A stretch of DNA of 36,072 bases from an uncultured archaeon (GTDB lineage Archaea; Asgardarchaeota; Thorarchaeia; Thorarchaeales; Thorarchaeaceae). Under the pieces are notes generated by a model, which saw only the letters and a list, made by a program, of their open reading frames with translations, was not told the DNA's origin and made no database searches. The DNA is taken from the NCBI GenBank assembly GCA_964610875.1, contig CAZSWP010000037.1, forward strand, positions 1 to 36,072, written 5' to 3'. How positions within the stretch are numbered: the first letter of the stretch is position 1; each line of letters opens with the position of its first letter. Of the stretch, positions 10,971-36,072 are shown in pieces. Made by a program: the position numbers and the translations under genes.

Positions 10971-12164
10971 TTGAGTCGACGGCGACCCCTTATCTACTTT
11001 GATCAAACACAGAATGAACGAGGACGGCTTGATAGTACGTACTCAGAGTTAGGTCGGTTGCTGAAGGACAACGATTTTGACGTGCAACCATATTCGGAAT
11101 TCATGATTCTCCCAAAGGTCTTGGAGCATGCACAAGTCATTGTCTTCGGTTGCCCAAACAGCTCGAAGTTGCGAAAAGCAGAAATTGACACTCTTCACAA
11201 CTATGTGAAGAATGGGGGAGGGCTTATGCTTCTTTCACTCTCTGGTGGAGACAAAGGGCTCATGAATAACATGAGCCAAGTTTCCGAAGAGTTCGGAGTT
11301 ACTTTTGAGAACACTGCTGTCAAGGACGATAGAGAAAATGCCGGACTCCCAACAATGCCACTGATTAAAGAATTGACGGATCACCCAACAACACAAGGAA
11401 TCCAGAACTTGTTGCTACCATCTGCATGCACGTTAAAGGTGACTGGTGATGCCGAAGCTGTAGCGACTACTTCTGATACAGCAGACCCACCATCACAACC
11501 AGTCATAGCAATCTGTGAATATGGTAAGGGTAGAGTCGTCTGCATTAGTAGCTACGAAGTCTTTAGAAGAGGCGGAGGGCTAAAACACAAAGGGAATCAA
11601 ACTTTTGCGGTCAATACTTTTTCATGGCTGTCAAGAATGGTGACGACGGAACCAGAAACAAGTACAGATGAAGAGCAACCTACGAGAAAGAAGAAGAGAA
11701 AAACTGCAACATCAAAGGTGACTGCTACATCTGAAGAGATGGAAAATACAATGAAACGATTAGTTGATGCTGTTTTTGACCTTCAGAAAGATATCACAGA
11801 ACTGACTAAGAAGACAGATGGCATTGATAAAAATATTGAGGAGTTGCGAAACCAATTTCAATCATTTGCTGAAAAGACACAATCACAGCTTGGCGTCATG
11901 ATCCCAGCAAAACAGTTCAAGACTGAAGAAGAGAACAAAGTAGCTATCATAGAAGACGAAATAAAGTCCATAGAATCAGAGCTAAAATCGGTCGAGAACC
12001 TGCAAGATCACATAGAACAACGATATTCCTCAGGAGCTATGCCCAGAGAAGCTTACGAAGAACAATCAGAGAAACTGGATGAACGTGCAAAAGCTATCAC
12101 AAAGAAAATCGAGAAGAAGAAAAAAGAACTCGAGAAATTAAATGAATCCGAGAGAAAGAAGTAA
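10971..12164 (+). CDS. GIFT/IFT52-like (DUF4350, GATase-like fold) domain plus C-terminal coiled coil
   Basis: N-terminal ~220 aa with EIDTLHNYVKNGGGLML and YGKGRVV. Basic linker, then heptad-rich C-terminus. No signal peptide. GAGGT RBS, TTG start. Confidence 0.7.
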   Translation: MSRRRPLIYFDQTQNERGRLDSTYSELGRLLKDNDFDVQPYSEFMILPKVLEHAQVIVFGCPNSSKLRKAEIDTLHNYVKNGGGLMLLSLSGGDKGLMNNMSQVSEEFGVTFENTAVKDDRENAGLPTMPLIKELTDHPTTQGIQNLLLPSACTLKVTGDAEAVATTSDTADPPSQPVIAICEYGKGRVVCISSYEVFRRGGGLKHKGNQTFAVNTFSWLSRMVTTEPETSTDEEQPTRKKKRKTATSKVTATSEEMENTMKRLVDAVFDLQKDITELTKKTDGIDKNIEELRNQFQSFAEKTQSQLGVMIPAKQFKTEEENKVAIIEDEIKSIESELKSVENLQDHIEQRYSSGAMPREAYEEQSEKLDERAKAITKKIEKKKKELEKLNESERKK

Positions 12165-31923: not shown

Positions 31924-32047
31924 CTCTGGACAGGTAAATCACTGGGATTCAATGATTAAGTGCATGGGTTGTCGAAGTCACACCTCATTTAAGCTTCTCG
32001 CCGATGTAATTCAACTAACTTATCGTCGTAAATACTGAAGAAATTAA

Positions 32048-32096
32048 TGGCGGGACCGCCCAGATTCGAACTGGGGAAAACCGACTCCGCAGGCTG
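32048..32096 (-). tRNA. 3' half of tRNA-Arg(GCG), a fragment and probable att-site duplication
   Basis: Minus strand reads CAGC-CTGCGGA-GTCGG-TTTTC-CCCAG-TTCGAAT-CTGGG-CGGTCCC-G-CCA (anticodon loop, T arm, acceptor 3' strand, CCA). No D arm or 5' acceptor strand adjacent. Confidence 0.85.
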
Positions 32097-32123
32097 CACT
32101 ATGAACAATAATAATATGTTTCA

Positions 32124-32751
32124 ATGAATTCCACAATTGAGGTTTTGTTAGTGGCGGAGGATGAAAATATAGACGTAATACATATCAATCCTAAGAACAG
32201 AGTTCTAGAATTCATCCTAGTCATTGTAAATTCATTATTTATGGCGTTCTTAGTCAATCAACTAAGTGGGATTATCGACTCAATTGGTAGGAACCAATTT
32301 AGCTATGATGCACTCTATATTGGTAATTCTGATTCACGTGAATTCAGTCCAGATACCACGAGCTATAAGAGTTAGAGATATCGGTTCAGAACACTGAAGT
32401 GGATTCAGTATTTTTGGTAAAGGTATCGATATAACAATATCATATGAAAGCGCAAGAACAGTGCTTCCAGAACAACTAGATTTGACCATAATCAACACTA
32501 ACAAAAATACAAAAAGAATAATGATTAATCAACTAGAATTAACTGCAATAGTCAAAGTAACCATTTTTGGTTTTCTCCGTTTTAGAGAAGAATTCCAGAG
32601 GCTGATAAAATGGGTAGAAAGTTTTGTCAATAAATTAATTTCGGATTACAATTGGTACAAGTTCAGAACACAGAATGGAATTACTAGTTACAGATTAATC
32701 AATATTGAACATAAATGTGCCAAGCTAGAGAGAAAACAGAATAGTGAGTGA
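32124..32751 (+). pseudogene. Possible decayed gene (two short AT-rich ORFs in different frames)
   Basis: ORFs 32124..32375 (one hydrophobic stretch) and 32461..32751. No recognisable motifs. Confidence 0.25.
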
Positions 32752-32941
32752 AATCTCCATCCAGAAATACGAATTCGTACAAATATAATACACTACTATA
32801 CCATTTGAAACACTTTTTATTGAGAGAATTGAATCGTATTTTCGGATGGTTATCTTCAGCAATTTCATCATTCTTTTTGGACCTCTCTCAGGCTTTTGAA
32901 ATAGATAGTAAATAATAGTTCCATTCATTGTAACACAAAAA

Positions 32942-33414
32942 GGCACCAGCCTGCGGATGACCTATTTCTAAATAGTGAGTGAACCTCAACTGATTGAAAC
33001 TTCTGTGTTCCACCCTTCTCTTGCCAGTGTCGCCACCACTCAGCAATCCAGAAGATATGCCAAGATTAGCAAGAACTTTGTCTGTCATCATTGAGATGGA
33101 ATCCCTCCTACAGACCGGGCTTCTTTCTCCTGTTTTAGTACTGGTTCATCACTACCAGTGACAGAGAGATTTTCCACAGTTTTTCCCACGGCAGGGTCAT
33201 CATCACCCACCCCAGCATCATCACTGAAACTGAGAAGACTCATCTGAGCATGGTGAACGGCCGCGGACTCTCCAGAATTTGATATTAATTCCTTTTCGGA
33301 GAGTAAGGACTTCCCTTGAGAAGGCTTCTTCTCTTGGGCTTTCGGTCGTGTGCTTCGTGCAATAGCACTAGCCCACTTACCTAGTCCTCTCACAGAGTGT
33401 AATGACTTTGTGAG
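32942..33414 (-). ncRNA. Candidate omegaRNA overlapping the tnpB 3' end
   Basis: Hairpins at 33389-33414, 33318-33333, 33267-33304 and 33140-33159 lie downstream of RuvC-III. T5 run at 32937-32941. Boundaries are inferred. Confidence 0.5.
32970..32993 (-). repeat. 24-bp imperfect inverted repeat, copy downstream of tnpB
   Basis: Minus strand TCAGTTGAGGTTCACTCACTATTT versus plus strand 34804-34827 TCAGTTGAGTTCACTCTCCTATTT. Confidence 0.8.
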
Positions 33415-34758
33415 CATAAGAAATCGTGCTGCGATATTGATACTACCATTTCTGTCTGCATTGGTTTTCAGCCCACAACTTGGGCAATGAAAATAGTTTT
33501 GCTTTGGTCTCTTACCCTTAGCACCACATTTCCAACATATGATAGAGGTCCATGCTTCAGGTACTGCCTTACAACGGGCATTCTTCCCATCAACCTTCCA
33601 ACCAAGCTGAGCCAGCCCATGTTTCAAACTCTCCGTTACTCGCGAATAAGCCCAAGAATGTATCATCCCTCTGAACCTGCGCGATTGGTAGTTTCCTCTC
33701 TTGGCACGTATTCGAATATTTTTCAGGCGACCAATGGCAACATAGAGTGTGTATTTTTCAGACAACTCCGATATGTAATCAAGAAGATTACGAACTAGAA
33801 CACGATCGTATTCTTTAGCAATGTTCTCTCTTTTTGACCTTATCCTGCGAAGTTTCTTTGCAACCATATCATGAAGCTGTCCGTTATTCTGTCGATTATG
33901 CATCTCTCTCTGCAGGTCCGAAAAGAGTCTGTCATATCGCTTGATGATTTTGACCTTCTCTTTTTGTATAAAGTACTTGGTCTCTCTAACTTTTTGTGGA
34001 GTAAGAAGTGTTGAACAGGCTGCTTTCTCAATCCCAAGGTCAATACCAAGAACTGCAACCGGAAGATTGGTTTCGGGCGGTTCATCGATATTGATACGGA
34101 CTGCGAAGCTGACCCACCACTTGCGTCTTTTATCAGTAAAAATCTGAAGTGCCTTTATCTCTCCGCGTTCTATTTGATTCAGATGATAGGGGGACATCTT
34201 TAGAGGAATCATCAATCGGTCATGATGTGCTCTTTGTTCCTTTGCAGAATCAAGAGCATCACGAAGGTCTATCCACCAACGGACAACAGATGTCTTTTTC
34301 TCAATGATGTTGAATCTTTGAGAGAACACCCATCGAAGAATTCGTCGAGAACTTGTGATGGTTGTAGGACGTGAAGCAGTAAAACCTCTCTTCATTCTTA
34401 GTTTGAGATAACTCTCATAGAGAGCAACAGCTGTCTGTCGACACTCAGTCATCTCATTCTGAGAGATACGAGGAAAACGGACCTTGAAATCGTGGAGCAC
34501 ACTGGTTCTCGGTTCCACACCTGACTTCACCTTGAGTGCGGTCATTGTCAGCTGGTCAACCTTACCATCACTAATTCGGTCTTTTTTCTTGCCTGTCAAC
34601 AGTTCATCTTCATGTTGTTCAATTATTCCAAGAAATGCACGTATTACTCTGGTATCTCGTCCAACAGTCTGCCTAAGCCTTTGCCTTGTCCTTTTTGTCA
34701 TGGATTCCCAGTTGATTGGAACCTTCACCGCGATTGTCACACCCTTGGACCGAGCCAT
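33088..34758 (-). CDS. tnpB: TnpB-family RNA-guided endonuclease with rearranged RuvC-II
   Basis: RuvC-I LGIDLG (D240), AIGRL (G343 at the usual Glu), VPEAWTS (E401), CWKC/CPSC zinc finger, RuvC-III NADRNGSINIA (D435). Confidence 0.92.
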   Translation of the reverse strand: MARSKGVTIAVKVPINWESMTKRTRQRLRQTVGRDTRVIRAFLGIIEQHEDELLTGKKKDRISDGKVDQLTMTALKVKSGVEPRTSVLHDFKVRFPRISQNEMTECRQTAVALYESYLKLRMKRGFTASRPTTITSSRRILRWVFSQRFNIIEKKTSVVRWWIDLRDALDSAKEQRAHHDRLMIPLKMSPYHLNQIERGEIKALQIFTDKRRKWWVSFAVRINIDEPPETNLPVAVLGIDLGIEKAACSTLLTPQKVRETKYFIQKEKVKIIKRYDRLFSDLQREMHNRQNNGQLHDMVAKKLRRIRSKRENIAKEYDRVLVRNLLDYISELSEKYTLYVAIGRLKNIRIRAKRGNYQSRRFRGMIHSWAYSRVTESLKHGLAQLGWKVDGKNARCKAVPEAWTSIICWKCGAKGKRPKQNYFHCPSCGLKTNADRNGSINIAARFLMLTKSLHSVRGLGKWASAIARSTRPKAQEKKPSQGKSLLSEKELISNSGESAAVHHAQMSLLSFSDDAGVGDDDPAVGKTVENLSVTGSDEPVLKQEKEARSVGGIPSQ

Positions 34759-34772
34759 TGTCTTTCGCCTGA

Positions 34773-34786
34773 TTCTATATAAAGTT
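34773..34786 (-). promoter_or_regulatory. TATA box of tnpB, probably a leaderless or short-leader transcript
   Basis: Minus strand AACTTTATATAGAA, with TTTATATA about 18-25 nt upstream of the ATG. Identical 14-mer at 34870-34883. Confidence 0.6.
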
Positions 34787-34803
34787 CTGACCCGTTTCTT
34801 GAG

Positions 34804-34827
34804 TCAGTTGAGTTCACTCTCCTATTT
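34804..34827 (+). repeat. 24-bp imperfect inverted repeat, copy upstream of tnpB
   Basis: Partner of 32970-32993; 22 of 25 aligned columns are identical. Confidence 0.8.
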
Positions 34828-35004
34828 GTACGTAGAGAGTCTTTTGAACTCGTATTAGAGTCATCATATTTCTATATAAAGTTATTAAGATAAAATATCA
34901 AATAATATTTTGATTTTAGTTAGATTGTTTCTAGCTCAAATATTTTCCAATAAATTAATTTAGATAAATGTTTTAAATACCCAGCAAAACAGGAGATAAT
35001 TACT

Positions 35005-36072
35005 GTGTGGGAAGTGGGAAGACCTGAGAAAGGCTATCCAAAACACCCAAACAGAATACTCTACAATGCAATCAAGACAGGACTATCTACAACGATATTG
35101 CTTCAGAGAGAGATTGTATCGAAGGCAGGTAATCATCTCTATGAAGGATCAAAAGAGAACTGGGAAAGAGCAAAGATTCAGTACAGATACTCAGTGGAAA
35201 GAGGGGACCCAGACTTCACAATACTGACGAAATCTGAGAATAACATCCGGAAAAATCTGTACAGAATTCTAGTTGAACGTGCTGCGGCGTTTGGTATCCT
35301 TGAATCCGTCCGTGTGACAAACAGATACGAGAGTCTAGGTCCACTGAATCAACGTCTTAATATTATTGGAGCTGTGCTTCGTTTCCTTGGGATGAGCCAA
35401 TATGGTTTCATAGAAATGCAACAGCTAGTCCACAATGGCGAATTGGTCAAGGGTTTTGCTGCAAATTCGTATGCACCTCAAGTCATTCCAATTCATAATC
35501 TTCCAGAACTGGACTTCATTGATTCCTGTAGGTCACCGCTTCAGACACTTGCAATGCATTGCACTATCTTTGATGTGCCGCATACTGATACCAAGAGATA
35601 TGCCAATCTTTACATGCTCAAAATGTCACCATATCTAGACTATGTGTATACAGAACACGCAATAGGAGAACCTGGACTGAACAGGAAACTGATCTCTATT
35701 CTGAGAGAACTGAAAAATGATATTGCTGACCACTTTAGTACATGCCTATACCAAAATGATACAGTCACTGGCAAACAATCGTTTCCAACTCCTAAGTTCG
35801 AGAAGGAATTCTTTGAAACGCAATTACTAGAAGCTCAGCGTGCCGGTGTGCATCCTCTAGCACTCACGGAGTTCGAACGAATATTCACAGGCGGTTCAGT
35901 AGTCACTAAGACTGATAAAATAGAAGACGGGAAGATCGAGGAACATCCAGCTCCATGCTTAGTAGAAGAAGATGTCAAGCATCTATGGTCATTAATGTCC
36001 CAGAGTAGCATACGTATGGGTTCGCATATTCATCATCGACTCTCTCGCCATCTTCCAACCTACCGCAGCATC
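35005..36072 (+). CDS. Hypothetical protein, truncated by the window end (absent from the ORF track)
   Basis: GTG at 35005 with AGGAG at 34991 and TTTAAATA at 34972. 356 codons with no stop (MWEVGRPEKGYPKHPNRILYNAIK...SIRMGSHIHHRLSRHLPTYRSI). Confidence 0.8.
   Translation, partial: MWEVGRPEKGYPKHPNRILYNAIKTGLSTTILLQREIVSKAGNHLYEGSKENWERAKIQYRYSVERGDPDFTILTKSENNIRKNLYRILVERAAAFGILESVRVTNRYESLGPLNQRLNIIGAVLRFLGMSQYGFIEMQQLVHNGELVKGFAANSYAPQVIPIHNLPELDFIDSCRSPLQTLAMHCTIFDVPHTDTKRYANLYMLKMSPYLDYVYTEHAIGEPGLNRKLISILRELKNDIADHFSTCLYQNDTVTGKQSFPTPKFEKEFFETQLLEAQRAGVHPLALTEFERIFTGGSVVTKTDKIEDGKIEEHPAPCLVEEDVKHLWSLMSQSSIRMGSHIHHRLSRHLPTYRSI

Follow-up and report, generated by a model that had tools for sequence, protein, structure and literature searches.

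The window analysed here is a 36,072-nt stretch of DNA from an uncultured archaeon of the family Thorarchaeaceae (contig CAZSWP010000037.1 of assembly GCA_964610875.1). On its minus strand it carries a tnpB gene, whose product P0001 has a rearranged RuvC active site. We consider it likely that P0001 is the alternative-glutamate (Ealt) TnpB of an Asgard aCas1-TnpB element, of the group called Cas1H-Asgard, and that it is an RNA-guided endonuclease. In Cas1H-Asgard loci, the region downstream of tnpB possesses a short variable stretch, which is followed by GTTCACTCA (PMC10691335). The same arrangement was found in the window, where GTTCACTCA is matched exactly at 32976-32984 (-). Since both a Cas1-like partner and the exact GTTCACTCA are present, the locus matches the aCas1-TnpB loci of Altae-Tran et al. 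2023.

Active-site residues of P0001

The features of the tnpB gene are as follows.

33088..34758 (-): tnpB open reading frame (ORF) encoding P0001, 556 aa, with the stop codon included in the span; from the open frame and from family and fold matches
34039..34041 (-): codon of D240, RuvC-I, in GIDLG (D-L-G, not DPG); from residue reading, the family alignment and the AsCas12f alignment
33730..33732 (-): codon of G343, in AIGRL, at the canonical RuvC-II Glu position; from alignments and the model
33556..33558 (-): codon of E401, in VPEAWTS, the alternative Glu, six residues ahead of C408; invariant, and from the model
33475..33537 (-): C4 zinc finger with C408, C411, C425 and C428 (CxxC at 408-411 and 425-428); from residue reading and conservation
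33454..33456 (-): codon of D435, RuvC-III, in NADRNG; from residue reading and conservation

An earlier note, made by a model from the letters of this DNA, had described intact D240 and D435, Gly in AIGRL and Glu in VPEAWTS 58 residues further on, in a protein of 556 aa at 33088-34758. The open frame bears out the ORF, and the residues were read directly. E401 lies 58 residues past G343 and six residues N-terminal to the zinc finger. P0001 thus possesses a RuvC-like D-E-D triad (D240, the relocated E401 and D435), with the C4 zinc finger between RuvC-II and RuvC-III. The canonical position is non-acidic and a Glu stands six residues before the first CxxC, as in the proteins named Ealt, TnpB2 or RuvC-II-rearranged. 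By residue counting, P0001 matches the Ealt pattern D{P}G x(120-160) E x6 CxxC x(12-18) CxxC x(4-8) D (PMC10711439).

A profile of 54 family sequences was aligned with the solved AsCas12f (8j12). G343 aligned exactly with the catalytic Glu of 'IQMEDL', E401 with the Pro of 'IDPQYTS', and GIDLG and NAD with their AsCas12f counterparts. Since this alignment places G343 on the catalytic Glu, G343 occupies the canonical RuvC-II position. The same register is seen with P0239 ('VMENLKGI'), the only member of the family alignment that is canonical. Among the curated family models, Pfam Cas12f1-like_TNB matched P0001 above its cut-off (E 6e-12, 45.9 bits), and the Cas12f2 model also matched, below its curated cut-off.

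Distribution of the relocated glutamate

The source assembly consists of 124 contigs and is 95% complete. The genome carries seven full-length tnpB paralogs of 44-73% identity, together with fragments, and D/G/E/D is kept in 7/7 of them. Hundreds of homologs of the same length, at 70-79% identity, also keep the Gly/alternative-Glu pair. All of these are from Candidatus Thorarchaeota metagenome-assembled genomes (MAGs), in agreement with the probable Asgard origin given in the earlier note. When 1.84 billion cluster representatives were searched, 971 proteins matched at E <= 0.001. An alignment of 75 relatives, from close ones to some of only ~25% identity, has Gly in 71 and the alternative Glu in 73; a single sequence (P0239) is canonical, with Glu in the Gly column and the alternative Glu absent. 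The named distant members are two Heimdallarchaeota and one Odinarchaeia. In A1, the alignment of 54 sequences, E401, T404, S405, C408, C411, C425 and D435 do not vary, and the zinc-finger cysteines, D240, E401 and D435 are invariant or nearly so across the clade.

Since Gly and the alternative Glu are common to nearly all close and distant relatives found, the change is older than a large Asgard clade. As judged from these sequences, the rearrangement is ancient, belongs to an Asgard-wide clade in which it has been selected, and did not take place in the P0001 gene itself. The independent rearrangement that had been proposed for this protein is therefore not borne out.

Predicted structure of P0001

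The structure of P0001 was modelled by AlphaFold2 on the alignment A1 (mean predicted local distance difference test, pLDDT, 80.7; most of the core >90). The tail from residue 471, roughly 100 aa, has pLDDT <50 and is predicted to be disordered. In the model, G343 lies in strand 337-344 (at the strand end), E401 follows directly after strand 396-400, and D435 begins helix 434-449. E401 would thus be at the end of the strand adjoining the one that ends in G343. This placement fits the published topology of rearranged TnpBs, in which the Glu is shifted from beta-4 to beta-5 (PMC10691335).

When the model was compared with the Protein Data Bank (PDB) by Foldseek, AsCas12f and OsCas12f ranked first (E 1e-17, target TM 0.68-0.73), ISFba1 and ISDra2 TnpB came next (TM 0.63-0.66), and mimivirus ApmFanzor2 was found at rank 20 (TM 0.56). 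The family profile, searched against PDB sequences, gave Cas12f at 1e-33 and ISDra2 TnpB at 7e-6. The model therefore predicts a TnpB/Cas12f fold. No CRISPR array was found in the window, and the context of a type V-F CRISPR effector (Cas12f), namely an adjoining array or adaptation genes, was not seen there.

The Cas1-like partner

A second gene of the element lies upstream of tnpB.

35005..36072 (+): N-terminal 356 aa of the partner, a giant Cas1-like protein of the aCas1 type whose gene runs off the contig; from conservation and fold

The partner gene is divergent from tnpB and lies 246 nt upstream of it. Among the 34 related loci with at least 1.2 kb of upstream sequence, a homolog was found in the same position in 25. 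Thus P0001, which the earlier note had called a solo TnpB, has a conserved neighbour. The other nine loci consist of the TnpB unit alone (e.g. L066), and these resemble tnpB-only IS605 derivatives. Full-length partner homologs are 1420-1838 aa long, all of them 'hypothetical' Thorarchaeota proteins. Neither as a single protein nor as a profile did the partner match Pfam, NCBIfam, PADLOC or PDB sequences, and in a language-model atlas it gave only scores below 0.8. In an alignment of 27 partner sequences, E72, N110, H159 and D170 are invariant, and a block of the PD-(D/E)xK type, E372...D385...x-K413, was observed.

Residues 1-800 of the partner of a full-length relative (contig C78) were modelled by AlphaFold2 (pLDDT 81.9), and the model was compared with 48,161 PDB representatives by VIA-align. 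Residues 1 to ~215-244 matched Cas1 catalytic domains and a casposase, with Z of 13.0, 12.7, 12.0, 11.4 and 11.2. The best Cas1 match had Z 13.0 and rmsd 3.5 over 177 residues; 12 of the 16 best rows were Cas1 or casposase, and the Cas1 matches ranged over Z 9.5-13. Residues 585-800 matched RecA/KaiC-type ATPases at Z 9-10, and this RecA-like part was all that Foldseek detected, weakly. The C78 partner would accordingly possess a Cas1-like integrase domain (1-~240), a PD-(D/E)xK motif (~370-415) and a RecA-like ATPase (~585-800). Weak profile alignments put E72, N110, H159 and D167/D170 of the partner on the invariant E, N, H and D of Cas1. Because sequence searches gave no significant Cas1 match, the assignment rests mainly on the VIA-align fold match. 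The Pfam Cas1 model detects only two ordinary Cas1 genes in the genome, both on other contigs. On the modelled fold, a Cas1 homolog would adjoin tnpB in this Asgard genome, the evidence from sequence alone being weak. Makarova et al. 2020 reportedly treat Cas1 homologs relevant to aCas1-associated TnpBs.

In one related locus (L067:3317-5517), the giant partner has as neighbours a RadA/Rad51-like gene and two small genes that lack annotation. These may be cargo or host genes.

RNA scaffold and presumed guide at the 3' end of tnpB

The following features were assigned to the 3' end of the gene and the region past it.

33091..33453 (-): last ~120 codons of tnpB, encoding the disordered tail, with conserved synonymous sites; probable 5' part of the scaffold; from pLDDT and codon identity
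32958..33087 (-): conserved scaffold in the non-coding DNA past the stop codon, with AGGTCA (32958-32963) as its end, covarying stems and GTTCACTCA at 32976-32984; from alignments and folding
32938..32957 (-): presumed guide, the first bases past the conserved right end; similarity between loci stops here

Conservation across 31 loci covers the final 45 nt of the ORF and ~130-150 nt past the stop, and similarity ends after AGGTCA/AGGTTA. RNAalifold predicted stems with compensatory changes, e.g. CTCTTGC/GCAAGAG, and a strongly covarying inner hairpin. The unit containing GTTCACTCA is conserved across the 31 loci. In the window, the exact GTTCACTCA lies 104-112 nt past the stop on the tnpB strand, and this is its only exact copy there. 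A chance occurrence was considered and rejected: ~0.3 exact copies are expected per window, yet the single copy stands on the right strand and in the conserved place. Thus, a conserved, apparently structured RNA region extends from the 3' end of the gene to the right end of the element. No Rfam family matched within 32000-35100 at E <= 1.

Synonymous-codon identity climbs from ~0.5 in the body of the ORF to 0.71-0.77 over codons 436-556. Therefore, the RNA probably starts inside the part of tnpB that encodes the disordered tail. Synonymous sites are also unusually conserved (0.65-0.75 vs ~0.5) at 33667-33762 (codons 333-364) and 34579-34758 (codons 1-60), one of these two stretches spanning the codon of the RuvC-II Gly, G343. 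This suggests further RNA or regulatory elements inside tnpB.

A variable stretch of 8-11 nt before GTTCACTCA pairs with a stretch after GTTCACTCA. Cognate hairpin arms gave -9.7 kcal/mol vs -7.4 kcal/mol for swapped arms, and 0/5000 permutations reached the observed mean, although relatedness of the loci may inflate this result. These results suggest, as a correction to the literature, that the 'hypervariable' stretch acts as a hairpin arm, and it is more likely that the guide begins after the conserved AGGTCA end. The 16 nt at 32942-32957 are antisense to the tRNA-Arg(GCG) anticodon arm and are unique in the genome; a copy with one mismatch occurs on contig C24, within a tRNA-Arg(CCG) gene.

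A second copy of TTCACTCACTATT was observed at 32740-32754 (-), 231 nt past the first, and is perhaps a remnant of another right end. In three related loci (L016, L018 and L048), one or two extra partial right-end units (hairpin and AGGTCA) follow in tandem downstream of tnpB and form a short ladder.

Ends of the element and tRNA context

Two further features mark the surroundings of the gene.

34759..34925 (-): conserved left end with TATA-like boxes (34773-34786 and 34870-34883), a hairpin and GAGTGAAC; from locus comparison
32048..32096 (-): tRNA-Arg(GCG) gene, of which the 3' part is present, with CCA, up to a break in the anticodon stem; read directly

About 128-165 nt upstream of the tnpB start codon are conserved. 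GAGTGAAC is inverted relative to the right-end motif, with arms at 32985-32998 and 34799-34812. The 3' part of tRNA-Arg(GCG) at 32048-32096 is a probable border of the inserted region. Between it and the presumed guide lies an AT-rich segment (32097-32941, ~845 nt, GC 0.34) with no convincing gene. This segment is bounded by inverted copies of TCCGCAGGCTG at 32086-32096 (+) and 32947-32957 (-). Therefore, the tRNA-like segment presumed to be the guide is not a simple continuation of the split tRNA.

ARAGORN made no tRNA call for the window or for eight loci, although tRNA-like sequence can be seen and Rfam detects tRNAs at four loci. In two of the related loci (L024 and L043), the Rfam search placed tRNA genes 20-50 nt beyond the right end. 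In L068, a 7.7-kb two-gene unit stands between direct repeats (22 nt exact and 20 nt at 90% identity), which are composed of the 5' part of a tRNA and its upstream region. At L068:4040-4221 and 11818-11883, ~65 nt are duplicated on both sides of the unit, together with what was recognized by eye as an apparently complete, intron-containing tRNA gene on the far side, which ARAGORN does not call. The duplications look like att-type repeats, although no tyrosine integrase is present in the unit. No right-end-type motif was found past the 3' end of the partner gene in L067-L069. Thus, the far end of the composite element is not defined by the same repeat.

As the earlier note had stated, no tnpA is nearby: Y1_Tnp had no match in the 95%-complete assembly, and no serine recombinase was found in the window or beside the Ealt copies examined. 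Accordingly, the P0001 element was not recognized as an IS200/IS605 or IS607 element. The two serine recombinases of the genome adjoin distant TnpB copies of the 731-aa type, which have their own giant partner, on contig C18. There, L061 (G000:C18:14000-28000) and L062 (G000:C18:58000-67782) are two copies of a three-gene unit made up of an IS607-type serine recombinase (~205 aa, MerR helix-turn-helix and Resolvase), a giant Cas1-like protein (1764-1838 aa) and a TnpB. The TnpB of L061 is 731 aa long and possesses the canonical Glu (LYFENL), and that of L062 is cut by the contig end after 346 aa.

These flanks bear on another explanation, that of a CRISPR-like system with a single guide, which would be acquired, the Cas1-like partner inserting it or swapping it beside the GTTCACTCA unit. 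In the window, tRNA-like sequence past the right end is limited to ~18 nt, whose orientation is opposite to that of the tRNA half 860 nt away; moreover, the ladders of partial right-end units, the Cas1 fold predicted for the partner, and the likeness of GTTCACTCA to the start of a CRISPR repeat, noted in PMC10691335, are in line with such a system. However, the window has no repeat array, the 'hypervariable' stretch is only 8-11 nt long and pairs beyond GTTCACTCA, which makes it a hairpin stem, and the right end of L068 runs directly into the duplicated 5' part of the tRNA and its upstream region, like an ordinary flank. Thus, we regard an acquired guide as improbable.

Activity and proposed mechanism

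In a study by Jiang et al. 2023, Fanzors and a 'TnpB2' subset were reported to carry an alternative Glu ~45 residues away from the canonical position, which is occupied by Pro or Gly; the E467A mutant of ApmFNuc was inactive, and the rearranged TvTnpB of Thermoplasma volcanium cut DNA in a manner dependent on the target-adjacent motif, with no collateral activity (PMC10530073). Altae-Tran et al. 2023 mapped RuvC-II-rearranged (RIIr) clades, some branches of which are almost exclusively archaeal. RIIr-5 is the largest rearranged clade and has Gly in place of Glu (PMC10691335).

The earlier note had taken P0001 for an active nuclease and not a dead protein of the TldR type. Indirect support for this comes from the sequence, in which D240, E401, D435 and the cysteines are kept and a structured 3' RNA is predicted. 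By analogy, ApmFNuc requires the Glu at this position, and TvTnpB, which is active, has it as well (PMC10530073). P0001 is thus probably active as an RNA-guided nuclease, and the conserved, covarying RNA scaffold at the 3' end of tnpB favours this view.

Alternatively, P0001 might be an exapted, catalytically dead TldR-like TnpB, which performs only RNA-guided DNA binding and regulates, for instance, the tRNA or the partner gene. The lack of the canonical Glu, the age of the tnpB copies in the genome and the match of the guide-like segment to a tRNA gene would agree with this. In contrast, the rearranged site keeps its three acidic residues, invariant or almost invariant, throughout the clade, whereas known dead derivatives lose catalytic residues or the C-terminal RuvC-III segment (PMC10691335). 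Furthermore, the same type of site is active in TvTnpB and Fanzors (PMC10530073). There is accordingly little chance that P0001 is a dead derivative.

For the active Ealt TnpB of an aCas1-TnpB element, we propose the following mechanism. Where beta-strand 4 ends, Gly replaces the RuvC-II Glu, and the D-E-D triad would instead be formed by D240, D435 and E401, the last of these lying where beta-strand 5 ends. The RNA loaded into the TnpB would have its start within the last ~120 codons, extend over the 130 conserved non-coding bases and terminate in AGGTCA. The next ~16-20 bases after AGGTCA would serve as the guide, here antisense to the anticodon arm of tRNA-Arg. The giant Cas1-like partner is presumed to move the element, and the TnpB would probably act as TnpBs usually do, cutting the matching site and thereby favouring retention or re-copying of the element.

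Several observations weigh against this interpretation. P0001 scored 92.3 bits with NCBIfam guided_TnpB, whose curated cut-off is 100, and 25.5 bits with Pfam OrfB_IS605, whose cut-off is 30.5. With hhalign, the partner gave no significant match to one Cas1 or to 16 Cas1s (E ~0.2), and VIA-align warns that a helical domain may reach a Z of around 13 even where no homology exists. The terminal hairpin of the window itself is weak (-3.6 kcal/mol), so that this tnpB copy may be decaying. Finally, with identities of 44-73%, the paralogs show no sign of recent transposition.

Relationship to Fanzors

The fingerprint of Fanzors is DPG in RuvC-I together with Glu six residues before the zinc finger, as described by Yoon et al. 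2023. The published tree unites the Ealt sequences in a single group, with a split into a D-Phi-G clade and a DPG clade containing pro-Fanzors and Fanzors, and Fanzors were derived from cyanobacterial IS607 pro-Fanzors (PMC10711439). The site of P0001 had been called Fanzor-type in the earlier note. This is correct for Gly and the alternative Glu, which are published for Fanzors and a subset of TnpBs, but not for RuvC-I, where P0001 has DLG and not the Fanzor DPG. The combination of DPG and alternative Glu is therefore absent from P0001 (GIDLG), and RuvC-I is D-hydrophobic-G in almost all family members. The hosts are Thorarchaeota MAGs; neither a eukaryotic or giant-virus host nor a cyanobacterial IS607 context was found. 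In a profile scan of IMG/VR, 78 of 80 TnpB loci were off the alternative-Glu pattern, most of them with a canonical-type DPxYTS-like motif before the zinc finger, and none combined DPG with the alternative Glu.

A link to the origin of Fanzors had also been suggested, and in its strongest form the Asgard Ealt TnpBs would be the archaeal ancestors of Fanzors, inherited vertically from an Asgard-related host. The shared alternative Glu, exactly six residues before the zinc finger, the Asgard host and the single group formed by all Ealt sequences before the D-Phi-G/DPG split (PMC10711439) are compatible with this. However, RuvC-I is DLG, and D-hydrophobic-G in almost all of the family, instead of DPG; the family profile found Cas12f at 1e-33 and no Fanzor-named PDB entry at E <= 0.01; ApmFanzor2 reached only rank 20 in Foldseek; and the published source of Fanzors is the cyanobacterial IS607 pro-Fanzors (PMC10711439). 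Such an ancestry is thus very improbable. With DLG instead of DPG, and with Cas12f and TnpB as neighbours in sequence and fold, the Fanzor-origin link is not supported, and nothing in the sequence ties P0001 specifically to eukaryotic Fanzors. We likewise think it highly doubtful that the Asgard Ealt family branches at the base of the alternative-Glu clade that includes pro-Fanzors and Fanzors. If it did, the relocated site of Fanzors would trace to an archaeal host-side lineage and not to cyanobacterial transfer.

Comparison with known systems

Both the relocated-Glu site, known from large TnpB clades and Fanzors, and the Asgard Cas1-TnpB pairing are already published. The locus therefore adds a further member to the known Asgard Cas1-TnpB elements and not a new kind. 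It is a well-defined test case, with an intact predicted nuclease, a guide RNA that can be delimited and a candidate guide of 16-20 nt against a tRNA gene. To our knowledge, an Asgard Cas1-linked TnpB has never been tested experimentally. The locus would permit the first such experiment, and would also allow one to ask whether Ealt enzymes generally lack collateral cleavage.

Cas12f (AsCas12f and OsCas12f) and ISDra2/ISFba1 TnpB are the best profile and fold matches of P0001 over WED, REC, RuvC and the zinc finger. These proteins have the canonical Glu, whereas P0001 has the relocated one, and Cas12f adjoins a CRISPR array, unlike P0001 in the window. Fanzor1, Fanzor2 and pro-Fanzors share with P0001 the place of the alternative Glu and an RNA scaffold that overlaps the 3' end of the gene, and Fanzor2 is a mid-rank structural match. 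P0001 differs from them in having DLG for DPG, in its archaeal genome and in the lack of an IS607 TnpA beside its subfamily.

The RIIr TnpBs, TvTnpB and the D-Phi-G clade of Ealt proteins are alike to P0001 in Gly at the canonical position, Glu six residues before CxxC, D-hydrophobic-G in RuvC-I and the C4 zinc finger. In comparison with RIIr TnpBs and TvTnpB, P0001 is larger (556 aa), with an N-terminal extension and the disordered tail of ~100 aa. TvTnpB sits with an IS605 TnpA, whereas P0001 is linked to a Cas1-like protein. Cas1H-Asgard-1 and -2 (PMC10691335) share with the locus the Asgard host, a tnpB beside a Cas1 homolog, and the downstream variable stretch with GTTCACTCA. In contrast to their description, the partner in the relatives of this locus is a multidomain giant that the Pfam Cas1 model does not detect, and the variable stretch reads here as a hairpin arm and not as the guide that was tentatively proposed (PMC10691335).

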